The notes beneath the pieces were generated by a model. It worked only from the letters and a program-made list of their open reading frames with translations. It was not told the origin of the DNA and did not search any database. The translations under genes and the position numbers were made by a program. A stretch of 64,000 bases of DNA, taken from positions 618,667 through 682,666 of the forward strand of contig CBDFKL010000006.1 of NCBI GenBank assembly GCA_965248825.1, read 5' to 3'. This DNA is from Alphaproteobacteria bacterium. GTDB taxonomy: Bacteria > Pseudomonadota > Alphaproteobacteria > UBA828. Numbering within the stretch: position 1 is the stretch's first letter; each line of letters begins with the position of its first letter. Below, one piece after another: positions 3,090 through 29,370 of this stretch.

Positions 3090-3788
3090 TCAACGCGGCG
3101 CCGCGGTGGCCAGCATCGCGTCCAGCCAAACCGGGAGATCGTCGGTTACATAGTCCGGCGTGATCCGCTCGTCGCCGGAAAACGACCAGGCGCCGTCATT
3201 GCGGATCCAGACGGTGGCCATGCCGAGCGCCGCGGCCGGCTCCAGATTGCGCAGGATGTCCTCGAACAGGATGGCGCGCGTCGGGTCGACGGCGTACTGG
3301 AGCGTCAGGCGCTCATAGGCACCCGGAAAGGGCTTGGGGATCCAGTCGGCCGCCGCGATGTCGTAGATCGCGCTGAAGTGATGGTCGATGCCGAGCCGCG
3401 CCATGACCCGCTCGGCATAAGGGACGTCGGCGTTGGTGAAGACCAGCTTGCGTCCGGGCAGGCGGGCGAGCGCCGCCTCCAGTGTTTTGCTCGGCGAGAG
3501 CGGCGAGAGATCGATATCGTGAACGAATTCGAGGAACGGACCCGGTTCCATGCCGTGCTTCAGCATGAGTCCGCGAAGCGTCGTGCCGTATTCCCGGAAG
3601 TAGCTCTTCTGCAGCCGCTGGGCTTCCGTCCGGTCGACGTCAAAGTAAGTCGCAATATAGGCGCCGATCCGCTGGCTGACCTGCTCGAAGAGGCGCGAGC
3701 TCGACGGGTAGAGGGTATTGTCGAGATCGAATATCCAGGTCTCGATATGGGCAAGGTCGACGCCGTTGGGCGCTGCGGCCGGGCTCAT
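3090..3788 (-). CDS. HAD-superfamily pyrimidine 5'-nucleotidase
   Basis: WIFDLDNTLYP, YGTTLRGLM, FTNAD, PKP, FEDILRNL; usual neighbour of dapD in Alphaproteobacteria. Confidence 0.9.
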   Translation of the reverse strand: MSPAAAPNGVDLAHIETWIFDLDNTLYPSSSRLFEQVSQRIGAYIATYFDVDRTEAQRLQKSYFREYGTTLRGLMLKHGMEPGPFLEFVHDIDLSPLSPSKTLEAALARLPGRKLVFTNADVPYAERVMARLGIDHHFSAIYDIAAADWIPKPFPGAYERLTLQYAVDPTRAILFEDILRNLEPAAALGMATVWIRNDGAWSFSGDERITPDYVTDDLPVWLDAMLATAAPR

Positions 3789-3792
3789 GGCA

Positions 3793-4311
3793 TCAATTGC
3801 ATTGCCCGTTGGAGCCCTCGGAGCACACCTTCTCGCCGTCGGTCCAGCGCGCGCCGCTAAGGTCCGCCTTGAGGAAATCGGTGCCGTCGAGCCGGGCGCC
3901 GGTGAAGTCGGCACGACGCAGATCCGCGCGGAAAAATCGGGCGCGCCGAAGATCCGCGTCTCGGAACGACGCCCCCGTCAAATCCGATTTGGTGAAGTCG
4001 ATGCCGATCAAGCGGGCGCCTGTCCAGAGCGTCTCGACGAGAACCGCGCCGGCGAACTTGGCGCGCCTGCCGTCGACCTTGGTGAAATTAGTCCGCGTGA
4101 GATCCGAGCGCGCGAGGAACGCATCGCGCAGCGACGCGCCGGTCAAGTCGACCTCGACGAATGTCCGATTGTCGAGAGAGCAGCGCCGCCAATCCACGCC
4201 CGGGTTCGGCGTGTCGGTGCATGCGGCATAGGCTGCCGGCGCTACGAGCGCCAGGACAAGCCCGATCAGCCCCGCCGTCACAGCGCTCTTTTGTCTTTGT
4301 CTCCCAGGCAC
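3793..4311 (-). CDS. Secreted pentapeptide-repeat protein
   Basis: Signal-like N-terminus (…APAAYA), A(D/N)LXX repeats, Cys pairs at both ends. Confidence 0.85.
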   Translation of the reverse strand: MPGRQRQKSAVTAGLIGLVLALVAPAAYAACTDTPNPGVDWRRCSLDNRTFVEVDLTGASLRDAFLARSDLTRTNFTKVDGRRAKFAGAVLVETLWTGARLIGIDFTKSDLTGASFRDADLRRARFFRADLRRADFTGARLDGTDFLKADLSGARWTDGEKVCSEGSNGQCN

Positions 4312-4362
4312 CGCCTACATGTAGCCCGATGCACCGCCTTACACCAAGGCGAAAATCACCGA

Positions 4363-4851
4363 TCAACGCACAGGCGGATCGAGGCCGAAGCCTCGTTCGA
4401 GCGCGAGCGGCCGTGGCAGCGAGCCGTGCACCTCCATCACGGCGGCAATCCGGCGCACCACATCCTCCGGAAACGGTGCAGACCGCCGGGTTTCGAGGTC
4501 GACATGGATGCCGACCCATTCGGAGCAGGCCGCCGTCCATCCCTCGCTCCCGTGCTCCAGCAGATGAGCCATCTGAAAGCGTTTGTCGTCATAGCCGATG
4601 AGCTGGGTCTTGACCCGCACCTCGCTGCCGAGCGTCAACTCGCGCCGGTAGACGGTGCGCATGTCGAGCGCAAAAATCGACTTGTTGTGCCGGCGGACGT
4701 AGTCCTGACCGACGCCGACGAACGAGAAGAACGCGTCGGTCGCGTGATCGGCAACAACGATATAGGAGGCCACGTTCATGTGGCCGTTGTAGTCGATCCA
4801 CTCGGGCCGAACGATCTCGCGATGGAGGCAGAGAGGCGCCTCGATCGTCAT
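4363..4851 (-). CDS. Hotdog-fold thioesterase (4HBT-like)
   Basis: VRPEWIDYNGHMNVASY motif. Confidence 0.85.
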   Translation of the reverse strand: MTIEAPLCLHREIVRPEWIDYNGHMNVASYIVVADHATDAFFSFVGVGQDYVRRHNKSIFALDMRTVYRRELTLGSEVRVKTQLIGYDDKRFQMAHLLEHGSEGWTAACSEWVGIHVDLETRRSAPFPEDVVRRIAAVMEVHGSLPRPLALERGFGLDPPVR

Positions 4852-4874
4852 GTCCGCTGGGTCTTTGGAACCGC

Positions 4875-5099
4875 TCAGTCGGTATCCGGGCGTCGCCCGC
4901 CGCGCCCGCGGGGCTCGTCCGATTCGCGCTCGATGCGCTTGCGATCCAGCTCGGTGTCGGTCTGCACCGCCTCGTTCTGCGTCACCCTTCGGTCCGCCTT
5001 CCCGCGCCCCGCCCGCGCCCGGTTTTCGGCGCTCTGCCGTGCTTTCAACGCGCGTTCACGCTTCTTGCGGAATTGATTGAGATTGACGACATCGCCCAT
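4875..5099 (-). CDS. DUF4169-family small basic protein
   Basis: MGDVVNLNQFRKKRER...AENRARAGR pattern. Confidence 0.75.
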   Translation of the reverse strand: MGDVVNLNQFRKKRERALKARQSAENRARAGRGKADRRVTQNEAVQTDTELDRKRIERESDEPRGRGGRRPDTD

Positions 5100-5284
5100 G
5101 ACCAAAGGCCTTCCGGTTTGTCGACAAACATGATTTAAGGTGAGCAGGGCCTCCCCACCCAATCCAACCCGACCGATTGACGAGCAAGCCTAGCCGAAAT
5201 GAATCGGGCTGTTAACCGGAGTCGTTCGGGCCGTCGCCGTTCGAGCGCCATACGGGGCCGCTCGGCTCCGAGGCATGGCAAGCC

Positions 5285-8200
5285 GTGAAATTCGTCTACG
5301 GCATCCTTGCCTTTCTGGTGCTCCTTGCCCTCGCCATTTTTCTGGTGCCGTTGCTTCTCGACTGGGAACGCTTCAAGCCCGAGATCAGCGAGTACATAGA
5401 AGCCAGCACCGGCCGCGAGCTTTGGATCGACGGCGAGATCGCGGTCTCCATCCTGCCCTCGCCGACGATAACCATCACCGATCTGCGTCTCGCCAATCTT
5501 CCGGGCGCGAGCGTTCCCGACCTTGCGCGGATCAAGTCGATTGATCTCGCCCTGGCGTTGGGCCCGCTGTTCAGCGGCACGTTCGCCATCACCGGCCTCG
5601 AGATGGTCGAGCCGGTCGTCGAGCTGGAACGACTCGCCGACGGCAGCCCCAATTGGACCTTCGAGAGCGCGACCGGCAGCACATTGGAAGAAATCGCCGC
5701 GAGCGAGCCGAGCGCGACCGACAGCCAGTCGGTCAGGATCGATTCGATCACCGTCCGGAACGGCACGGTTGTCTACCGGAATGCGGAGGGTCGGCCGCCC
5801 GAGCGGATCGAGCGGATCGAGGCGAATTTCTCCGCACGCTCTCTTGACGGGCCGTTCCGCGGCGAGGGCACGTTCTCGATACGCGAATCGATGGTCGGGT
5901 TTCGGCTCGCGACGGGCGCGATCGAAGAGACCCGCGACATGCCGGCAACGATCGAGGCGGCGTTCAATGGCGGGCTCGGCACCCTGATTCTCGAAGGAAC
6001 CATGCGGGACGTCGATACCTCGCCTTCCTTCGACGGCACCATGCGCGCGACGGCGCCCGACTTCGGCGCTTTCTTGAGCGCCTTCGCGATCGATCCCGAG
6101 TCGGTGTCATCGGCGGCGCTGTTGAGCGACACCTTCTCGGCAAAGGGCGCGTTTAGTGCGAGCGCCGAGGCGCTTGCGGCACGCGAGTTCCAGCTTCGGC
6201 TGGGCGAAAGCCAAGCGACCGGTGCGCTCTCCTGGCGGGGCGGTGACGATCCGTTTTTCGACGCCCAGATAGCGCTCAATCGGATCGACCTCGACAAGAT
6301 CATACCGGCCGGCGCGGGTGCCGATCCGCCGCCCGCGGGGGCTCGCGCGGATTCCGGCGAGACAACGACCGGCGGAGCGGACCCGGCCGCCTTGTTCGAA
6401 AGCATCCCCAAGGACATCGCGGCCGCGGTCAACCTCACGATCGGCACCGTCACCTATCGTGAGGGCGTGATCCGCCAGGCACGGGCAAGCCTCGCCCTCG
6501 ACGAGGGTGTGGTCACGATCCAACAAGCCTCCGCGTTGCTGCCCGGAGGCGCCGACGTCACGCTCTTCGGCCAGTTGACGATGGACGACGACGGGCCCTG
6601 GTTCGAAGGCAAGGTCGACATCGCAGCCGACGACTTGCGCGCCGTCCTGGCCTGGCTTGGCTTGGACCTCGACGCCGTCCCGGCGGACCGGCTTCGCCGT
6701 CTCGCCGCGAGCCTGGATCTCTCCGCCGGCGTCGATCGAATCGCGGCTTCGAAGATGGACATCCGGGTCGATGCCACGCGGGTCGCCGGCGATGCGGCCG
6801 TCGAGATCGGCGAGCGGCTGCGCGTGTTCGGGGCGCTGGCGGTTGACGGCATCAACGCGGACGCTTACCTGCCGGCCGGTCCCGGCACTATGGCCGCACC
6901 GGCAGCCGACACCGATGACCGGGATGCGGCGCCCATCGACGAGCCGCAGGCCGGATCGATGACCGCGGGCGGCGGCCGGTGGCCGGTGCCGGATGGGATC
7001 GATGCCGATCTCAAGCTGGCGGTCGGCGCCCTGACCTATGGCGGCGTACGCCTGCTCGGGCTGGAGCTCGACGCCCTTCTCGACAAGGGCGATGTGACGG
7101 TGCGCCGCGCGTCGGTGATGGACGCAGCAGGCGCAAGAGTGTCGCTGAACGGCAGCGCCCGCAGGCACGGAACCGAGACGGCAATCGACCTCGCCGTCGA
7201 AGGAAAGGCACGCTCGCTCTCCGGTCTCGTCGCGCTTCTCGATATCGACCCGGGGTTTCGCTCCGAGACATTTGGCGAGATCACGTTGCAAGGCGCGCTC
7301 ACGGGGGATCAAGAAGCCCTCACCGTCGATCTCGCCCTCGCCGCTCGCGCCGCCGAGCTGTCGCTCACAGGCGCGATCGAGACGCCGCTCGACCGGCCTT
7401 CCGCGAATCTCGCCGTCAGCCTTCGCGCATCCGATGCGGCGGAACTCGCTCGGATCATCGGGCTCACGCCGACCGCCACGATCGAGCGACTCGGCGCGCT
7501 GGCGATCGACGGCGGAATCGAGGGCAGCACCGCGTCCGTCGCCATCAGGCTCGGCGCCGAAGCCGCCGACGCAACGCTGCAAATCGTCGGAAACGTAAAA
7601 GATCCTCTTGCCTCCCCGAGCTACCGTGTGACCATCGACTTCCGCCATCCGCGCGCCTCGGCCTTCGTTGAAACCATGACTGGCGAGCAGGCCGCGGCAT
7701 CCTTGTTCGGCGGCCTGCACCTCGCCGGGACGGTCTCCGGAAATCGAGCGGCGGCCGATATCTCCAACCTCAAGGCCGAGCTCGGTGGCAACCGGATAGA
7801 CGGTGGGATCTTCCTCCACCTGGGTCGGAAGCCGCTGTCGATCAGCGCCGACCTCCGCGCGGACGAGCTCGACCTCGCGCTGCTCGGAGGCGGCATCACG
7901 AGGAGCAGCGAGGCGGGCGGCATGGCGGCCACCGACGGCTCCGCGCCGCGCGCCGGTGAATGGTCGGATGAGCCCATCGAGCTGGGATTTCTCGATCACG
8001 TCAATGGGGCGCTGACGCTCGACGCCGGCGCGCTCATTCTGGGGTCCTATCGTATCGAGCAGGCCATGCTCGAGCTCTCCGCAGCCGAGGGCGCGCTCGC
8101 ACTCCGCTCGCTTCGCGGGCAGCTCTTCGGCGGCGCGTTGGAGGCCGAGGGCAGCCTCGCCGGCGGATCGGAGCCGGCCGGCAGCGTGCGGTTTTCTCTA

Positions 8201-13349: not shown

Positions 13350-14207
13350 TCATTTGCGGCGCACGCCCGGTGGGGCGTCGTAAAGCGCGAGGCGGACGGC
13401 GCGCCACGCCGCCTCCAGCCCGCGGCGAAGCGCCGTGCCGTCCTCGGCCAAGAGACGCGCGATCACCCCGCTCTCGTTCGGGAGCGCCGAAGCGCCGCCA
13501 TAAACCGCGCCTGCGCTCGCCACCGCCTCACGGAGGGCTTCGCGGAGCGCGGCTCGTGCGGCACCTCGATGGGCGACGACGAAACTCCCCTGCGCGGGCC
13601 AGGGCGCGACTTGACTCCCGCCAATGGCGAAGCGATCGCCCGACACAATGTAACGTTCGAGCGCGAGCAGCCGACCCGCGGGATCCCTGATTCGCATTTC
13701 CGCCTGAAACCGTTCGAACCGGCGGTCTTCGCCGCCGGGGTCGTGATGGGTGAAGCTCTCGGACGCGACCACGGTGGCACCGGGGGCGGCGGTGATGTCC
13801 AACACCGAGACCAGCCGAGCGCCCGGAAACATGATCAGCGGGTCCGGGAGGTATTCGAGCAGCGCGCCGTCGGCTGCCTCGAGCGCCACCCTCTGCCGCG
13901 CCTCGGCCGCCGGCATGCGGTGGACGATCGTCGCCGCTTGGGTGGTCACATGGGCCGCGCTCCGCGGCTCGGCGACACAGATCATATGGAGATCGTCGCC
14001 CTGGTAGACTCCGCCCGACACGGACTGGAGATAGAGCGTCAGCGCCCCGGCGGGCTCGCGATCCAGGTAGAACGGCCGCGTGATGTGAAACGGGTAGCCG
14101 ACCCGCTGGCGAGAGATATAGCTCTGCCCGTCGGGTGCGCGCGCAAATCGGAGCGCCGCCTGAGGCTCGACATTGTGTCGGGCGGCGGCAGGAGCGGGCA
14201 CGGGCAC
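13350..14207 (-). CDS. ureD: Urease accessory protein UreD/UreH
   Basis: YPFHITRPF, LQSVSGGVYQGD, TTQAATIVH, LEYLPDPLIMFPGA, terminal RRK; GTG start estimated. Confidence 0.85.
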   Translation of the reverse strand: MPVPAPAAARHNVEPQAALRFARAPDGQSYISRQRVGYPFHITRPFYLDREPAGALTLYLQSVSGGVYQGDDLHMICVAEPRSAAHVTTQAATIVHRMPAAEARQRVALEAADGALLEYLPDPLIMFPGARLVSVLDITAAPGATVVASESFTHHDPGGEDRRFERFQAEMRIRDPAGRLLALERYIVSGDRFAIGGSQVAPWPAQGSFVVAHRGAARAALREALREAVASAGAVYGGASALPNESGVIARLLAEDGTALRRGLEAAWRAVRLALYDAPPGVRRK

Positions 14208-14218
14208 GCGGGCAGCGG

Positions 14219-15928
14219 TCAGCGCAATAGATAGTGTTGGCCGAGCGTGATCCTGTCGATCGGGTCGCAGGTCGCGAGCTCGCCGTCGACGAAGACCTCG
14301 AAGGTCTGAGAATCGACCCGGATGTCGGGGCACGCGTCGTTGTGCAGCATGTCCTTCTTGGTGAGCTTGGTGAAGCTCCCGATCGGCAGGATCGGCTTGG
14401 CGAGGCCGAGGCGCCCGGACACGTCGATATCGAGCGCCCGGCGGTGCGCAAAGGTCGCGCTCAGGGTCTGCGGCGCGCGCCCGTGATAGCCGAACTGAGG
14501 CCGCATCACCACGGGCTCGGTCTGGAAATAGCTTCCCGACGGATCGCCGCTCGCGCCCCAGGCGACGAAGCCGCCCTTGATCACGCCGAACGGCTTGATG
14601 CCGAAGAAGGCCGGGCGCCAGGTCACGAGGTCGGCCATCTTGCCCGGCTCCAGCGAGCCCACATAGCGATCGATCCCGAAGGCGATCGCCGGGTTGATGG
14701 TGTATTTCGCGAGGTAACGCTTGATCCGCTCGTTGTCGGCGTCCTTGGTCTTCTCTTCCGTGAGGCGCCCGCGTTGATCGCGCATCTTGCTCGCGAGCTG
14801 CCAGCACCGCGTGATGACCTCGTTGATCCGCCCCATGCCCTGGCTGTCCGAGCCGAACATGGCGACTGCGCCGATGTCATGCAGCACGTCCTCCGCTGCG
14901 ATCGTCCCGTGGCGCACCCGGCTCTCGGCGAAGGCCACATCTTCCGGAAGGTCGTAGCGCAGCAGGTGACAGGCCATGGTCATATCGAGCTGCTCGTCGA
15001 AGACATTGACCGTGTAGGGGTTGGTCGGATTGGTCGACGACGGCAGGCAATGGGGCTCGCCGTTGCACCGGATGATGTCCGGCGCGTGACCGCCGCCTGA
15101 GCCTTCGGTGTGATACATGTGGATCGTGCGGCCCGCGATCGCCGCCATCGTGTCCTCGTAAAATCCCGATTCGTTCAGCGTGTCGGTGTGGATCTGGACC
15201 GGGAAGTCGTGTTCGGCGGAGGCCCTGAGGCACGCATCGATCGTGGCCGGCATCGCGCCGTAATCCTCATGGATCTTGACGCCGATGATGGCACCGTCGA
15301 GGTGCTCGGCGATGGTCGCCGGATCATGCGATGAACCGCGGCCGAAGAAGCCGAAGTTGATCGGCCATTCCTCCGAGGCTTCGAGCATGCGGTATGTGTT
15401 CCACGGCCCGCCGCAATCGATCGCGAAGAGCGGCCCCATGGTGCCGCCGATCATGGTGGTGAGGCCGCTGGCGAGCGCATGTTCGCACTGGCCCGCCGAC
15501 ATCCAATGCACATGGACGTCGATCCCTCCCGGGGTGACGATCAGGCCGCCGGCCGGGTAGTAGGTGGTATTGGGACCGCAGACCAGATCGGCGTCCACCC
15601 CGTCTTGGGTATTGGGGTTGCCGGCCTTGCCGACGCCCGCGATCTTGCCGTCCTTGATCCCGATATCGGCTTTCACCAAGCCCAGAACCGGATCGATGAT
15701 GGTCGCGTTCTCGACCAGCATGTCGAGCGCGCCATCGGCGCTGGAGGTATGGGCGTCGTAGGACATGCCGTCGCGCATCACGCGGCCGGCGCCGGTCCAG
15801 CACTCATCTCCATAGCTGGTGTAGTCGTGCTCGATCTCGCCGACGAGGGCGGTGTCCCCGAGCCGAATCTTGTCACCCTTGGTGGGCCCGTAATAACGGG
15901 CATAGGTCTCGCGCGCGATCTTCACCAT
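14219..15928 (-). CDS. ureC: Divergent urease alpha-subunit homologue
   Basis: [66 protein letters not shown]; substrate-pocket motifs altered. Confidence 0.92.
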
Positions 15929-15932
15929 GGTC

Positions 15933-16628
15933 TTACGCTCCCCGGAAGCCGCGCGCCTTCGCGCGGGCTATCGCCTGCTCTCTGACCGCCGGAGAGTCGA
16001 TCATGCCCTCCGTGAGACTGTTGAACCCGGTAACCCGGCCACGGCCGCCGATTTTCACCAGCGCCACGTCCTTTTTCTGGCCCGGCTCGAAGCGGACGGC
16101 GGTGCCCGACGGGATATCGAGGCGCATGCCGAAGCTCTCGGCTCGATCGAACTCGAGCGCCCGGTTGATCTCGAAGAAGTGGAAGTGGCTGCCCACCTGG
16201 ACCGGGCGGTCGCCGGTGTTGGTGACCGAGGCACGCGCGGTCCTGCGCCCCGCGTTCAGCTCGATCTCACCCGCCGGCGTGATGATCTCGCCGGCGCGGC
16301 GTCCGGCCGCGGCCTTCTTCTTGCCGGGGCGGATCGGCTGGTGGACGGTGATCAGCTTTGCGCCGTCCGGGAACATGGCCTCGACATGAAGCACCGGAAG
16401 CAGCTCGACCACGCCGGGCATGACATCGTCCGAGCTCAGGATCTCCGCCCCATAGCCCATGAGGTCCTTGAGCGAGCGGCCTTCGCGGGCGGACATGAGT
16501 AGCTCGTCGCAGATATAGGCGATCGCCTCGGGATGGCTGAGCTTGATGCCGCGGCGCTTGTGCTCGCGCGCAAGCTGCGCAGCCATGAAGATGTTGAGCC
16601 GTTCCAGCTCCGTCGGGGTGAGGTTCAT
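15933..16628 (-). CDS. ureAB: Fused urease gamma/beta subunit
   Basis: MNLTPTE...KLSHPEA...[17 protein letters not shown] (gamma), then [19 protein letters not shown]...[15 protein letters not shown] (beta). Confidence 0.92.
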
Positions 16629-18594: not shown

Positions 18595-21500
18595 TCAAGC
18601 GATTCCCATCTGCCGAAGCATCGCACGGCAGAGCACGCTGTTCGGCTCCCTGTACTCTTCGAGCACCGTGAAGTGATTGTGGCCGGGTAGATCGACATAG
18701 TGACCTTGAAGGCCGCTTCCGGTCCACGCGGCGAGGTAGGCCTCGGATTGCCGGTGAAACTCCGCAGACTCCTCGCCGCCGAGCGTGACGATCAGCGGCG
18801 ACGCTTGGTCCGGCAGGTGTCGAATGGGACTCATCCGATCGACCTCTTCGGGGGTCAAGCGGAGCGTGGGCTGCAACCAGGAATGCATGAAGGGCTCCAG
18901 GTCGAAGAGGCCGCTGATCGCGGTGCCCCCTTTCACGAGATCGGGCGGCAGTCCGTAATCGCCGGCCCAATCGGTCGCGAGGAGCATTGCCGTCAGATGG
19001 CCGCCTGCCGAATGTCCCGAGACGTAGAGCCGGCTTCGGTTGCCTCCAAACGTCGCGGCATTGCGATAGACCCATGCGGCCGCGGCGCGGTTTTGCCGGA
19101 CGATCTCCGTGATGGTGACGCTCGGGCAGAGCGCATAGTTGTTGATCACGACCGTCACGCCCGCCGACACCAGGCCCTCCGCCACGAAGCTGAACTCCCT
19201 GCTGCTCAGCGAATGCCAATAACCGCCATGGATGAACATGTGGATCGGCGCATCCGGCCGAGCCGCGGGATAGATGTCGAGGGTCTCGGCGTTGGTCGGC
19301 CCAAACTGAACATCGAGCCGGGGCCCGAGCTGCTTCCGGACACGGGCGCTATTGGAGAGGAAGCTGTCCACATAGCGGCCAAAATCGGGCACGGCGCGTT
19401 CTGCATCATATTGCTCGTCGATCTCGGCCTGCGTGCGGAACGAGTGATAGAGGTAAGGACCGACCGGCGGACCTGATCGCGCGTGTACCGGCGCAGCCGG
19501 CGCGCCGGCGCGCACCGCCATCGGCTTGGACGGCCGCCGGAGAGGCCGCCCCTCGCCCGAGAAAGCCGGCAGCCAACGGCTCAGTCTTTGCCCGACCGAG
19601 CCGGTCGTCATGTCCGAAGACCTTCGCCGCCTCGGCGCTCCGTGTCGCTGACGGCGCCGAGAGCGCGCGGCGGCGCGTGCCGCCGCTTTCTCGCTCGCGT
19701 GGAACTCGACCACCGCCGCGCCGCCGCCATAGGTCGGGCCATAAGCGTGGACCGTCGCGCTGTGAAAGCGGCCTCCCATGGCGCCGAGCACCCAGGCGAA
19801 ATGCTTGAAGCCCATGTCGGCGCGGGCATCCCGGACATAGTCGGGCATCAGCGATTTCAGCGACGCGGCGTCGCCCGTGACCATCATGTCAAGAACCCGC
19901 CGGTTCCATTCATCCTCGGCGGCGCTCGCGATGTGATCATCGGCCGGGTCGATTTCTCGACGGAAGCTGGAGCCCGATAGTCCTCCCACGCCGATCACGG
20001 CCACGCGGCGGCCCAGACGGATCGCCTGGTTTGCGGCCATCTCCCCGAGCTTCGAGGTTCGCTCCCAGTCGTGATAGATATTGTTGGCCGCCATCACCAC
20101 CGGCCATGCGCCGCCGGCATTCAGAAACCGGTTGGCAACGAGGCTGCCGGTGTCGATCGGGAACCCGTCGTAATTGACGCCGCGCGCCTTGACCCCGATG
20201 GAACGGCTGGCGGCGATGCAGGCGTCTGCGAGCTCGGTATCGATCTCGATGTCGTAGTCGATCTCGCCAAGCTCGTGCCAATTCTCGTCGACATGGACGC
20301 CGCGGATCCGCGGCCGCGCTTGCCAAAGCTGGTCGAGAACCGCGAGCCATTGGGTTGAGTAGATGAGGAGGACGTCGGGGTTGGCCGCGCGCAGGGCGGC
20401 CGCGGCTTCCTCCAACCCTTCCGCAATGTCGGCCCAGGGCGGCGCGTCTCGCGCGAGCAGCGGCAAGGGGCTCCCGGGAACGAGCAAGGCGGCGACGACG
20501 GCCGGCGCTTCGTCTCGCCGCCGTCGGAAGAACAGCGCGCGTTGAAATCGATCGCCGACGCCGAGCGCCTCGAGGAGTTCATTGCGGCCTTTGTCCGAAT
20601 CGTCGAGATGCCGAAGTGCGTTGACGATGCCCATAAAGCCGCGCGGCAACACGAAAATAATCACGATCGCGGCGATTCCCAAAACCAACAGCGGATATTC
20701 GGTGAACCCCGAAAGCACGCGATCGACACCGACGAATATGGCGGCGCCGACGATCGGGCCGGCCAACGTGCCCATGCCGCCCGCGACCACGATGAATACG
20801 AAATAGGCCGACCAGAAAATCGTGAACGCTGCAGGCGGCGTGATGATCACCGCGTCGATGTAGAACAGGCCCGCTGCGAGACCGCTGAGGCCGCCGGCGA
20901 CGATAAAAACCAGCAGCTTCACCTTGCGGATGTCGATGCCCACGGTCTGCGCCGCTTCTTCGTTGTCGCGCACCGCGGTAAGCGCAAGCCCGTAGCGGCT
21001 CTTGAGGAGCCGCGAGATCACCACCGTCGCAAAGATGAGGAGACCGAGGCCTGCGTAGTACATCTCGATCTGCGTGGCGTCGGTTTTAATCTGCATACCG
21101 CCGCCGGCGCCGACCACCTTCCACTCATTGAAGACCGAACCGACCGCGGCCGCGATCAGCCAGCTTGCGACCGCGAAATAGGCGCCCTGAAGGCGCAAGA
21201 GGGGCAAAGCTCCGAGAAAGATGAGCAGCAGGATGATGACGCGGCGGATGTAGACCTCACCGAAGATGTCGGCTTCGGGGAAGTAGATCAGCGCCACCTC
21301 ATAGCCGGCCCACAACACGCCCGCCGCCGCCACGGGCTTCCAAACCCCGACACCGGTCAAGCTCTCCCGCACCGGTACGGCGAGAAGAAATGCGAACGCC
21401 GCCGTGACAATCCCGGAAATCGGCAACGCCAGCCATACGTTGACGCCCCCATAGTAGAACATGATCGCGAGGGCAAAGCCGCCGATGCCGATATAAACCT

Positions 21501-21711
21501 GGTTTCCGAAAGAGAGCAGCCCGCAATAGCCCGCGAGCAGATTCCAGGCATGGCCGAACACGGCGAACACGAAGAACGTGAATATCAAATAGATCAGATA
21601 GCTCTGATCGCCGACCAGCCACGGTATTGCGATGGCAAAACCAATGAGCGCGGCGAGCAGGCCGCGGCCGCGCCAACCGGTCAGTATCAGGTCGAGCCCC
21701 TGTGCGATCAT
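18595..21711 (-). CDS. Three-domain fusion: LivM-type ABC permease + AmnA-like (LigB-fold) dioxygenase alpha subunit + arylformamidase-like alpha/beta hydrolase
   Basis: Uninterrupted 1038-aa ORF: WNLLAGYCGLLSFG/AVRDNEEAA/GGMGTLAGP (about 21711-20620); VPGSPLP...YSTQW...DMGFKHF...YGPTYG (about 20505-19700); HGGYW, GHSAG, HNHF (about 19456-18595). Confidence 0.85.
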   Translation of the reverse strand: MIAQGLDLILTGWRGRGLLAALIGFAIAIPWLVGDQSYLIYLIFTFFVFAVFGHAWNLLAGYCGLLSFGNQVYIGIGGFALAIMFYYGGVNVWLALPISGIVTAAFAFLLAVPVRESLTGVGVWKPVAAAGVLWAGYEVALIYFPEADIFGEVYIRRVIILLLIFLGALPLLRLQGAYFAVASWLIAAAVGSVFNEWKVVGAGGGMQIKTDATQIEMYYAGLGLLIFATVVISRLLKSRYGLALTAVRDNEEAAQTVGIDIRKVKLLVFIVAGGLSGLAAGLFYIDAVIITPPAAFTIFWSAYFVFIVVAGGMGTLAGPIVGAAIFVGVDRVLSGFTEYPLLVLGIAAIVIIFVLPRGFMGIVNALRHLDDSDKGRNELLEALGVGDRFQRALFFRRRRDEAPAVVAALLVPGSPLPLLARDAPPWADIAEGLEEAAAALRAANPDVLLIYSTQWLAVLDQLWQARPRIRGVHVDENWHELGEIDYDIEIDTELADACIAASRSIGVKARGVNYDGFPIDTGSLVANRFLNAGGAWPVVMAANNIYHDWERTSKLGEMAANQAIRLGRRVAVIGVGGLSGSSFRREIDPADDHIASAAEDEWNRRVLDMMVTGDAASLKSLMPDYVRDARADMGFKHFAWVLGAMGGRFHSATVHAYGPTYGGGAAVVEFHASEKAAARAAARSRRRQRHGAPRRRRSSDMTTGSVGQRLSRWLPAFSGEGRPLRRPSKPMAVRAGAPAAPVHARSGPPVGPYLYHSFRTQAEIDEQYDAERAVPDFGRYVDSFLSNSARVRKQLGPRLDVQFGPTNAETLDIYPAARPDAPIHMFIHGGYWHSLSSREFSFVAEGLVSAGVTVVINNYALCPSVTITEIVRQNRAAAAWVYRNAATFGGNRSRLYVSGHSAGGHLTAMLLATDWAGDYGLPPDLVKGGTAISGLFDLEPFMHSWLQPTLRLTPEEVDRMSPIRHLPDQASPLIVTLGGEESAEFHRQSEAYLAAWTGSGLQGHYVDLPGHNHFTVLEEYREPNSVLCRAMLRQMGIA

Positions 21712-25477: not shown

Positions 25478-26290
25478 CTACACTTTGAATTCGACGACGG
25501 CGGCACCAGCACCATAGGTCGGACCGTAGGCGTGAATACGGGCGCCATAGTAGCGGCCGCCGGTCGCGCCCTGGATCCACGCGAAATGCTTGAAGCCCAT
25601 ATCGACTCTTGCTTCCGCTGCGTAGTCCGCGCAGATCCGCTCGACCTCCTGCGTCTCGCCTTTCTCCAGGAGGTTCAGAACACGCCGGTTCCAACGGTCG
25701 TCTTCATCGCTCGCGATGCGGTCGCCAGCGATATCGATCTCGTCACGGAAAATTGTGCCCGAAAGGCCGCCGACGGCCACAGCCGCGAACCGCTTGCCCT
25801 GCGCAATTGCGGCCTCTGCGGCTGCAGTCCCGATTCGTTGGGTGGTCTCGAAGTCATGATAGAGATTGTTCGCCGCCAGCACGAAGCGCTGCCCGCCGCC
25901 GGGGTCAAGACTGTTGCTGGCGACGATCGCCCCGGTATCGACCGGGAACTCATCGTAGTCGACCCCTTTCGAGCGAATCCCAAGCGCGTTGGCACTCTCG
26001 ATGCACGCATGGGCGAGTTCGGTGTCGATGTGCAGGTCGAACGGCAGGTCGCCAAACTCGTACCAGTTTTCGTCGACATGCACCCCCTGCAGCCGGGGGC
26101 TTTCCTGCCAAAGCTCGTCGAGTACCGCTATCCACTGAGTGGAGTAGAGAAGAACGGCATCCGGACGCGCCGCGGCGAGCGCGCGGGCGGCTTTTTCGTA
26201 GCCGGCGGCAAGCGCCGACCACGGCGGGTTGTCCTTACGCAAATACGGCAGAGGAGAGCCCGGGACCAGGAACGCGGCGACGAGGCTCAT
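25478..26290 (-). CDS. amnA: 2-aminophenol 1,6-dioxygenase alpha (non-catalytic) subunit
   Basis: VAAFLVPGSPLP, YSTQWIAVLD, HVDENW, ANNLYH, DMGFKHFAW; follows amnB. Confidence 0.88.
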   Translation of the reverse strand: MSLVAAFLVPGSPLPYLRKDNPPWSALAAGYEKAARALAAARPDAVLLYSTQWIAVLDELWQESPRLQGVHVDENWYEFGDLPFDLHIDTELAHACIESANALGIRSKGVDYDEFPVDTGAIVASNSLDPGGGQRFVLAANNLYHDFETTQRIGTAAAEAAIAQGKRFAAVAVGGLSGTIFRDEIDIAGDRIASDEDDRWNRRVLNLLEKGETQEVERICADYAAEARVDMGFKHFAWIQGATGGRYYGARIHAYGPTYGAGAAVVEFKV

Positions 26291-26292
26291 TG

Positions 26293-27321
<1,029 letters not shown>

Positions 27322-27357: not shown

Positions 27358-29370
27358 CCCGACTTCCGCAACTCGGGGGTCATGAAGGTTTTAACCCATT
27401 GATTTTCCGCGATCGGACCCCCAAAGGTCGGCACTACAGGGCGCCGAAGGGAGAGGCGTTCCGTGCGCCGTCAGGCGGAGATCCGCGGCGCGGGTTGTTT
27501 CGGCAGGGTCAAGCCAAGCTGGTGCAGCAGTAATTCGTGCTCCTTGTTCGGCCGGGTGTGGCGCGGCAGGACGAGGTGCCGGCCGTCGATGGTCGGCAGG
27601 TGGACGTCCACCATCTGGATGGTGGCGAACGTCTTGAGGATGGCGCGTGGGGTGAGGCCAGCGGCGTGTGGCCGGGCGAGGTTCTTCAGGGTGACGAGCA
27701 GGCAGTAGGCGATGAATGAGACGAAGATGTGCGCCTCGATCCGCTCTTCGCGCTGATGGAAGATGGGCCGGATCGCGAGGTCGTGCTTGAGTTCCTTGAA
27801 CGCCTGCTCGATCTCGATGAGCTGCATGTACAGGCGCCAGAGCGTGGCGGGATCTTCGGCGACCATGTTGGATCGCAACAGATAGCGGCCCTCGCGGCGG
27901 CGTACGCGGCGCAGCCGGTCGCGCCGCAGGCGGAATGAGAAGCCGTCCGCAGCGAGCTCCTTGTCGGTCTCGGGCACACCGATGTCGACCAGGCTCCAGG
28001 CCCGGCCCGCTTCCTTCTTGGCGGCACCGAGCTTGAGCATCAGCTGATCCCGGCTGTTGGACTGGCGTTGCAGCTCGCCCAGCCGGCGCCACAGTTTCTT
28101 CAGCCGGCGCCGGCGCATGCCGCGTTCCTTGAGGAGCCGCCCCTCGCTGCGCACCAGGACGTAAAGCTCTCCGTCTTCGGCCAACAGCTTGACGTCTACG
28201 GACTGGCGCACCTCCTGCCAGGGCAGGTCCAGGAACGCCTTCTCAAGCCGCGTCAGCCGGCCCTTGGGCGTGCCCACCAGATAGCGCACCGGCGCATCGC
28301 CCTCGCGCATCAAGGCCAGCGTCTCCTCGGTGGGAATGCCGCGGTCCATGATCCAGATCCGGTCGGAGCGACCGTATTGCCGTTCGATCTTCTCCAGGAA
28401 CTCCGCCAGCGTGGTCTGGTCGGCGGTGTTCCCCGGCATCACCTCGTAGGCCAGCGGAAAGCCCTCGGGCGTCACGATCAGCGCGATCACCACCTGCACG
28501 CAGTCCGGGCGCCTGTCCCGGCTGTAGCCGAACCGGCGCTTGTCCTCGAACGGCGGGTCGCTCTCGAAGTAGGTCGAGGTCAGGTCGTACAGCAGCACAT
28601 CGAAGCGCACGTCGAACAGCGTCGCCCAACGGGCGCGAAGGAACGAGAAGAACTCCTGCTTATGGAGCAGCAGCTTGTCGAGGCAGCGATACAGCGTGTC
28701 GTCGGCGATCGCCCGATCGCAGCCCAGAAGATCGCGCAACGCGCTGTGCTCGTACCAGTGACGGTGGAGACGCCACTCGCTCCCCGGGTCGATCAGTCGG
28801 TAGCAGACCTGGATCTTCAGGATGTCCAGCCACCTCGTGCCTTGACGGCTCGGGGTCAGGCGCGGGCCCCAGAAGCGGTCCAGATCAAGCCGATCCCACA
28901 GGACCAGGGCCAGCCAGCACGCCCCCCATTGGCGCGGGTCGTGCAGGGCCACGTCCGCGACGTTGATCTTGACCACCTCGCAGTCCAGCGCCGGCGCCTC
29001 CCGATCCTCGGGAAACAGCGCCATCTGCCGAGACCCCGACTTGCCCTCCACAACCTCGATCGAGCGGCACCACGCCGCGCGCTGGCTGTCGTTGATCTCG
29101 CCGAGATGGAGAACGTGGCGCTGAACAACGCGGCCGCCGCGGACCCGGACGTTCTCCACCACGCTCCAGTAGCGGTGCTCCTTGCCGTCCTTAAAGCGTC
29201 TCTTGCAGCGCACGAACATGAGGGTAGCGTCCGGCGCTTCGCCAGCACAATCAAGGGGGTAGGTCGGCACTACACGCGGTTCCGGAGAGCCAAAGACCGG
29301 AAATCCGCCACTTTCCGGGCCGAAAAACCGTCAAATTAGCCGAATGCCGTGCCGAGTTGCGGAAGTAGGG
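27358..29370 (-). mobile_element. IS1634-family insertion sequence, apparently intact
   Basis: 19-bp terminal IRs CCC(G/T)ACTTCCGCAACTCGG (1 mismatch), flanked by CTAA on both sides. Confidence 0.9.
27471..29219 (-). CDS. IS1634-family DDE transposase
   Basis: MFVRCKRRFKDGKEHRYWSVVE, LYDLTSTYFE, GYSRDRRPD, IMDRG, IEQAFKELK, RPIFHQ. Confidence 0.93.
   Translation of the reverse strand: MFVRCKRRFKDGKEHRYWSVVENVRVRGGRVVQRHVLHLGEINDSQRAAWCRSIEVVEGKSGSRQMALFPEDREAPALDCEVVKINVADVALHDPRQWGACWLALVLWDRLDLDRFWGPRLTPSRQGTRWLDILKIQVCYRLIDPGSEWRLHRHWYEHSALRDLLGCDRAIADDTLYRCLDKLLLHKQEFFSFLRARWATLFDVRFDVLLYDLTSTYFESDPPFEDKRRFGYSRDRRPDCVQVVIALIVTPEGFPLAYEVMPGNTADQTTLAEFLEKIERQYGRSDRIWIMDRGIPTEETLALMREGDAPVRYLVGTPKGRLTRLEKAFLDLPWQEVRQSVDVKLLAEDGELYVLVRSEGRLLKERGMRRRRLKKLWRRLGELQRQSNSRDQLMLKLGAAKKEAGRAWSLVDIGVPETDKELAADGFSFRLRRDRLRRVRRREGRYLLRSNMVAEDPATLWRLYMQLIEIEQAFKELKHDLAIRPIFHQREERIEAHIFVSFIAYCLLVTLKNLARPHAAGLTPRAILKTFATIQMVDVHLPTIDGRHLVLPRHTRPNKEHELLLHQLGLTLPKQPAPRISA

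Follow-up and report, generated by a model that had tools for sequence, protein, structure and literature searches.

A fused-subunit urease gene cluster

The window analysed here is a 64,000-nucleotide stretch of an Alphaproteobacteria genome (assembly GCA_965248825.1, contig CBDFKL010000006.1, positions 618,667 to 682,666), and its minus strand carries an intact, conserved urease gene cluster. The cluster encodes a fused gamma/beta subunit, a urease-like alpha subunit (UreC) and an accessory protein, and we focus on UreC, which combines the catalytic residues of urease with several altered active-site motifs. Coordinates refer to the window unless a contig or another locus is named.

15933-16628, minus strand: ureAB, fused gamma/beta subunit of 231 amino acids; ATG at 16628, with the open frame extending to 16832
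14219-15928, minus strand: ureC-like alpha subunit of 569 amino acids; starts 4 bases past the ureAB stop, with GGGGAG preceding the ATG
13350-14207, minus strand: accessory gene ureD, about 285 amino acids, directly after ureC; PF01774, 140 bits

The gamma and beta partners of UreC are thus supplied by the fused gene 4 bases upstream, in which profile searches place PF00547 at residues 1-99 and PF00699 at residues 113-208, and which scores 334.5 bits against NF009671 'bifunctional urease subunit gamma/beta' (cut-off 243); its relatives likewise have 231 amino acids. In the same searches UreC scores above the cut-offs of both TIGR01792 (EC 3.5.1.5; 736.3 bits, cut-off 680) and the subfamily model NF009686 (788.6 bits, cut-off 354). 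From relatives of 285 amino acids and the local sequence, we infer that ureD starts at a GTG at 14207, 11 bases past the ureC stop.

Conserved catalytic residues and predicted structure

An earlier note on this DNA had reported that all residues of the metal centre are present, and each of them is found in the ureC translation:

DVHVH, minus strand: metal ligands H139 and H141
KIHED, minus strand: the carbamylatable lysine K218, with H220 and D222
IHTD, minus strand: metal ligand H247
YHTEG, minus strand: metal ligand H273

Together with D361, the residues H139, H141, K218, H247 and H273 make up the six ligands of the dinuclear centre. The protein also keeps the substrate-orienting H220, the flap residues C320-H321, and D222 and R337, which lock the flap. 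Across a 34-sequence alignment H139, H141, K218, H220, D222, H247, H273, H321, R337 and D361 are invariant, and the catalytic residues are intact in all 23 rows of the subclade to which the window gene belongs (see below).

According to excerpts of PMC7433671, urea in the Sporosarcina pasteurii enzyme contacts His222, the backbone carbonyls of Ala170, Ala366 and Gly280, and Cys322 and His323 of the flap; His323 is locked by Asp224 and Arg339, and the C-beta of Ala366 packs against a water at the Ni(2) site. The role of the mobile flap is taken from excerpts of PMC7547064 and PMC7433671. Mapped onto the window UreC, the urea contacts affected by its motif changes are backbone carbonyls, and every urea-binding or flap-locking side chain is retained.

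The AlphaFold (AF2) model of the window UreC reached a predicted local distance difference test score (pLDDT) of 88.4 and a predicted template modelling score (pTM) of 0.92, with confidence dipping at the metal-site loops and at residues 463-466. All 39 top matches of the model in the PDB are ureases, with template modelling (TM) scores of 0.94-0.96 at about 2.0 Å, and the window UreC is 48-52% identical to the solved ureases. The shortened loop described below was not seen in solved structures, where the closest PDB chains are those at 48-52% identity and the printed alignments (H. pylori, Yersinia) show the long loop.

Altered motifs around the active site

The changes listed by the earlier note in the loop, the flap, DSQGMGR, the N-terminal motif and SGSYFQTEP can all be read in the translation:

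15401-15448, minus strand: shortened active-site loop, residues 161-176, with 4 residues less than GGGTGPxxGTxATTCTPGPW
14903-15004, minus strand: mobile flap, residues 309-342; Cys320-His321 and Arg337 retained, motif at 311-323 altered
14828-14848, minus strand: DSQGMGR, residues 361-367; ligand Asp361, and Gly364 where canonical ureases have Ala
15758-15799, minus strand: N-terminal motif, residues 44-57, replacing the canonical KFGGGKxIRDGMGQ
14513-14539, minus strand: SGSYFQTEP, residues 464-472, replacing NASIPTPQP; model pLDDT below 50 at 463-466

The claimed shortening of the loop by four residues is borne out by the HMMER alignment to Helicobacter pylori UreB, where a gap of this length follows the HxH strand, and a MAFFT alignment places Ala169 of the window loop against the canonical loop Ala. 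The contact at Gly364 runs via the backbone, so its function may be kept.

Several changes are specific to the window subclade, among them three in the flap (His to Gln/Gly at 313, Val to Ala/Ser at 319, His to Leu at 322), Ala to Ser/Gly at 277 beside Gly278, GGGK to GAGR, Trp223 to Tyr, and GSY[F/W]Q at 465-469. At the three flap sites the window gene itself has Gln, Ala and Leu. The flap DE[Q/G]LDMTM[A/S]CHLL and the changed loop occur in 23 of 23 subclade sequences (the window gene and L007-L028), and since every row shows the same states, these changes are not sequencing errors.

A short-loop clade within the urease family

To place the window gene, we inferred trees under LG+G4 (67 rows) and under LG+C20 with posterior mean site frequencies (PMSF; 49 rows), both as quick searches with support from the Shimodaira-Hasegawa-like approximate likelihood ratio test (SH-aLRT) only. 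Canonical ureases, with a long loop, DSQA and split subunits, form one clade (support 98 in both trees), and the short-loop DSQG enzymes form another (86 in the 67-row tree, 87 in the 49-row tree), with a core supported at 100 (45 rows) and 99 (33 rows), respectively. This core divides into a branch of 570-residue and a branch of 569-residue proteins, and the window gene is nested in a subclade of the latter composed of uncultured Alphaproteobacteria (support 98 and 100). The earlier note had proposed a phylogeny as a check, and the outcome agrees with its expectation of a clade apart from canonical ureases in which the substitutions are shared. A long-branched paralogue from the same genome (L006) has an unsure position in the trees.

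A fused gamma/beta subunit, a loop shorter by 3-4 residues and Gly for Ala in DSQA are the hallmarks of the short-loop branch, and the window gene combines the fused subunit, the short loop and DSQG with a placement inside the clade. The degree of change was compared over 250 columns that are at least 94% conserved among 18 canonical ureases:

570-residue branch, consensus: 40/250 columns changed relative to canonical ureases
569-residue branch, remaining members: 43/250 columns changed
window subclade: 60-62/250 columns changed
paralogue L006: 53/250 columns changed

The short loop, DSQG and a new Asp in the loop are traits of the whole short-loop clade, and the excess particular to the window subclade consists of about 20 further canonical-invariant sites that are altered and conserved across the subclade.

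The 570-residue sister branch

Members of the 570-residue branch are 63-66% identical to the window UreC and are annotated as ureC in Methylobacterium radiotolerans pMRAD01, Aminobacter, Labrys, Hyphomicrobium, Methylophaga and an Acinetobacter plasmid. They share with the window enzyme the fused subunit, the short loop, DSQG and the conserved loop Asp, but their loop is one residue longer, and they keep the canonical flap DEHLDMxMVCHHL and GGGK.

Their operons in Aminobacter, Labrys, Mesorhizobium, Hyphomicrobium, Methylophaga and others begin with an AmiR-like regulator, a Peripla_BP_5 binding protein, two permeases and two ATPases, followed by ureE, ureF, ureAB, ureC, ureG, ureD, HupE/UreJ and a regulator combining helix-turn-helix and cupin domains. 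Depositors annotated the binding protein as urtA in M. radiotolerans pMRAD01 and in an Acinetobacter plasmid, and on pMRAD01 the operon adjoins urate-catabolism genes. Five cultured or named genomes were checked for further copies. The 570-residue type was the sole ureC found in Methylophaga sulfidovorans DSM 11578 and in Hyphomicrobium sp. GJ21, and the remaining three carry a canonical ureC besides it. These contexts are indirect evidence that the short-loop type is a urease. Methylotrophs are frequent among the hosts, a hint that the type may be linked to methylated nitrogen compounds. In three metagenome-assembled genomes of Hyphomicrobiales/Alphaproteobacteria (L048, L049, L052) the operon lies between a gene resembling the beta subunit of N,N-dimethylformamidase and sarcosine-oxidase-type genes, and on the Acinetobacter plasmid (L087) it follows glnT and glutamate-synthase-like genes.

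Three ureC genes and a dispersed maturation system

The window genome holds three ureC genes, none with the long loop. One paralogue (L005) is of the 570-residue type, in the order ureF-ureAB-ureC, followed by genes for a cytosine-deaminase-like amidohydrolase, an isochorismatase-family protein and an amidase. At this locus (4208-10948 of L005, minus strand; contig ~1389200-1395950) the isochorismatase-family hydrolase is weakly BiuH/RutB-like and the amidase weakly AtzE/allophanate-hydrolase-like, so that the genes could be a ureide or biuret-type nitrogen-salvage cluster. The other paralogue (L006) belongs to a split ureA-ureB-ureC-ureE-ureF-ureG-ureD cluster beside a Urt-like transporter and is closest to the Yersinia urease. 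Its ureC (8289-10010 of L006, minus strand; contig ~1019294-1020985) has the short loop GGGSGPKTVGIECPG, DIHPH, IHADT, GGGNAPD for GGGHAPD and the flap TCHNL, and it has a very long branch, yet a ratio of nonsynonymous to synonymous substitution rates (dN/dS) of 0.03-0.06.

All three ureC score classes occur in 15 of 18 other genomes of the genus, and four of five marine relatives with the window type hold two or three ureC genes. Within the genus, dN/dS of the window ureC is 0.045-0.093 (all 11 comparisons); over four genomes the three classes span 0.033-0.094, and all are under strong purifying selection.

In marine members of the subclade the genes form a single operon, ureE-ureF-ureAB-ureC-ureD-ureG. 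In the genus of the window this operon is dispersed over three loci of the same contig, with ureD at the window gene, ureF at the 570-residue paralogue (10205-10948 of L005) and ureE-ureG at ~1.869 Mb. The genome encodes two UreD, two UreF and two UreG proteins, with one further weak UreG match, as well as a second UreE, and the extra copies are nearest to their counterparts in the marine operon (UreG 84%, UreE 66%, UreD 52%, UreF 50% identity) and distant from the set of the split cluster (L006). Likewise, the window UreD is 78% identical to UreD of the subclade within the genus and 52% to that of marine relatives, compared with 25% to the other UreD of the genome, which belongs to the split set. 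Since UreG, UreE, UreD and UreF are each nearest to the marine set, a complete lineage-specific nickel-insertion system has been kept. The stand-alone ureE-ureG pair (~6643-7742 of L107, minus strand; contig 1868651-1869741) is remote from any structural gene and is flanked by an ATP-binding cassette (ABC) transporter and a CoxLMS-type molybdenum hydroxylase.

Neighbourhood of the window cluster

In genomes of the genus, a Nudix gene and a divergently transcribed CurA-like reductase flank the cluster, as do a two-component system, DegP and AsmA. The last three lie downstream and are conserved in the genus only; marine relatives have different flanking genes. Aryl ureas, carbamates or cyclic ureas are not suggested by any conserved neighbour, and none encodes a matching transporter or downstream enzyme. 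A Pfam scan of the remaining hypothetical neighbours yielded nothing useful.

The region at 18.6-27.3 kb of the window, with LigB-type dioxygenases, an esterase and a Liv-type transporter, was considered as a clue to an aryl or cyclic urea and ruled out, as these genes are absent beside the urease gene in relatives and adjoin a DDE transposase. There, a 1038-amino-acid open frame (18595-21711, minus strand) joins LivM-like ABC permease, LigB-type dioxygenase and alpha/beta-hydrolase (esterase) domains and may be a true fusion or reflect lost stop codons; it is followed by two further LigB-type genes (25478-27288) and the transposase (27471-29270).

More distant relatives

The neighbours of other 569-residue clade members are varied and of a non-urea kind; they include a DAO oxidase together with an MttB-family methyltransferase, a hydrolase of the Peptidase_S15 family and, within the operon itself, an M17 aminopeptidase. 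In Acidocella (L062, L063; 3244-10431) two unknown genes and a gene of the M17 leucyl-aminopeptidase family stand ahead of a divergent 568-residue member. From the first unknown gene to ureF, each gene shares 4 bases with the next, which resembles the layout of a single operon.

Plasmids of Klebsiella and Enterobacter account for at least seven of the 40 matches listed, at 58.2% identity. Klebsiella aerogenes plasmid pMB5632_2 (L085) encodes a fused, short-loop, DSQG urease-like enzyme at 3296-5704 in which the flap Cys is replaced by Ser (MTSHHL); the cluster includes ureG, ureF and an ABC transporter and adjoins IS26 and tellurite-resistance genes. Haloarcula was considered as a verified short-loop urease and set aside, as the 4-residue deletion in its UreC is a different one and both ATTCT and DSQA are retained.

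Many remoter full-length urease-like clusters (representative proteins P0123, P0124, P0127-P0129, P0133, P0138, P0139 and P0150; ~38-52% identity) keep the metal ligands and have loops that are shorter still or different, and some other urease-like clusters are without metal ligands altogether. The urease fold holds more unexplored branches than its annotation implies.

A urease isozyme or a shifted substrate

We lean towards the view that the window locus encodes an active nickel urease isozyme of a biochemically unstudied lineage, because the pocket changes are largely lineage-wide and several of the remaining ones are tolerated in a verified urease. What the earlier note saw as a rebuilt pocket is for the most part shared by all of that lineage, and the best-placed of its members resemble real ureases. 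The window protein is very probably an active nickel enzyme. Its gene structure, residues, clade, accessory set and purifying selection are observed, whereas we infer nickel loading, activity and substrate, and urea would most likely be that substrate.

Under this proposal the enzyme would consist of the fused gamma/beta and the alpha subunits, assembled with its own UreD scaffold. A carbamylated Lys218 would bridge two nickel ions held by His139, His141, His247, His273 and Asp361, and His220 would orient the substrate carbonyl while the amide nitrogens form hydrogen bonds to backbone carbonyls of the shortened loop, Gly278 and Gly364. The flap would place Cys320-His321 over the site, with Asp222 and Arg337 as the lock. 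Maturation would rely on the scattered proteins of the lineage itself, encoded by the adjacent ureD, by ureF at the second fused-urease locus and by the ureE-ureG pair elsewhere, and the three ureases of the cell would carry out the same chemistry, with differences in kinetics, pH profile or regulation.

Several observations weigh against this assignment. Summed over the LG+G4 tree, the path from the common ancestor measures ~0.60 substitutions per site to the window gene as opposed to 0.22-0.28 to members of the 570-residue branch, and the 60-62 changed columns of the window subclade, compared with 40 in that branch, include the three flap sites and residue 277. The near-constant coexistence with another ureC fits a non-redundant role. 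No urea transporter adjoins the window cluster, and in the sister branch one UrtA-like binding protein scored 407.7 against a curated UrtA cut-off of 492.75. In addition, literature searches turned up no assay or phenotype for any short-loop fused urease, and a biochemically verified enzyme was not found within the short-loop clade; a Methylobacterium paper has a 'urease-like operon' as one table entry, and an Enterobacter hormaechei paper concerns a split ureA/ureB/ureC cluster.

A shifted substrate therefore has to be weighed, given the extra conserved changes near the site and the upkeep of the gene beside two other ureases. As an unlikely but serious alternative, the protein would be a neofunctionalised dinickel hydrolase, in which the loop, Gly364, Ser277 and the flap fit a small urea-like compound such as an N-substituted urea, hydroxyurea, a small amide or a ureido compound, with urea left to the other two ureases. 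The earlier note had drawn a similar inference, and part of it stands: the window gene falls in a separate clade in both trees, about 20 canonical-invariant sites are changed throughout the subclade beyond those of the 570-residue paralogue, its branch is two to three times as long as that of this paralogue, and three ureC classes coexist in most genomes of the genus, all under purifying selection. Loss of the C-beta of Ala366, which packs against the Ni(2)-site water in the S. pasteurii enzyme (PMC7433671), would also give slight room at the Ni(2)-bound nitrogen, and the varied non-urea contexts of other 569-residue members point in the same direction.

On four counts, however, the inference is weakened. 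Of the five motif changes, the short loop and DSQG are common to a much larger clade with urease-like operons; the verified Yersinia urease likewise departs from the canonical state at flap positions 313 and 322 and at the loop Ala, where A is replaced by G; the changed contacts involve the backbone only, the side chains that bind urea and lock the flap being retained; and neighbours of the kind expected for another substrate are not conserved, the nearby LigB and esterase genes being genome-specific and beside a transposase. The particular substrates named in the earlier note are unsupported. In a broader form of this alternative, which we regard as unlikely, the window enzyme, and perhaps the whole 569-residue branch, would have moved off urea, so that three 'ureases' with different substrates would draw on one scattered maturation system.

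It is very improbable that the gene is a silent or decaying copy kept by linkage or a non-enzymatic role, although ureE, ureF and ureG are gone from the side of the cluster in this genus and Brucella ure2, which yields no active urease according to PMC2868824 and PMC2492869, provides a precedent. A dN/dS of 0.05-0.09, catalytic residues intact in 23 of 23 subclade rows and lineage-specific accessory genes retained elsewhere in the genome all argue against decay. Least probable of all is a nickel-independent (for example iron) urease for nickel scarcity like Helicobacter mustelae UreA2B2, an iron urease that is not known to need nickel accessory proteins: the cluster in this genus carries ureD alone and the close structural matches include the H. 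mustelae enzyme (3qga), but the genome has full lineage-specific UreD, UreE, UreF and UreG, which form one operon in relatives, and the sister branch has a HupE/UreJ nickel-transporter gene.

If the window enzyme is a urease isozyme, as we favour, the fold tolerates a clade-wide rebuild of its urea-binding loop; if it is not, the dinickel urease fold would turn out to act on a new class of substrates. The distinction matters since databases label all proteins of the clade 'urease subunit alpha', and counts of environmental urea users rest on such labels. The scattered yet complete second accessory set also offers a case for how maturation proteins recognise their own apoenzyme.

Comparison with known ureases

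The window enzyme resembles the UreABC ureases of Klebsiella aerogenes and S. pasteurii in its fold (TM 0.96, 49-52% identity), the six metal ligands, the His, Asp, Cys-His and Arg residues of the active site, and the accessory system. It differs from them in that gamma and beta are fused, the loop bearing Ala170 (S. pasteurii numbering) is 4 residues shorter, DSQA is replaced by DSQG, and three flap residues and the GGGK and NASIPTPQP motifs are altered, and it falls in a separate clade. The two-subunit urease of H. pylori, the best PDB sequence match (624 bits), shares the arrangement of a fused gamma/beta (UreA) with an alpha subunit. Unlike the window UreC, however, it keeps the long loop and DSQA, and the window ureAB scores 261.6 against a cut-off of 353 for the Helicobacter model NF010592 and is thus not of the Helicobacter type.

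The acid-active urease of Yersinia enterocolitica (4z42, 6yl3) has split subunits, a long loop and DSQA, in contrast to the window enzyme, but has Leu for the histidine of DEH, Asn for the second His of the flap (CHNL) and Gly for the Ala of the loop; these states were taken from its alignment to the split-cluster paralogue (L006) and transferred to the window UreC via a second alignment. By this comparison the DEH histidine, the second flap His and the loop Ala are replaceable in a working urease, and the description of the altered motifs in the earlier note as nearly invariant in true ureases is too strong at these three sites.

Brucella ure2 and H. mustelae UreA2B2, second ureases of divergent role, are, like the window cluster, extra urease sets beside another in one genome. 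What sets the present case apart is that purifying selection acts equally on all three sets and that the genes for nickel maturation have been kept.

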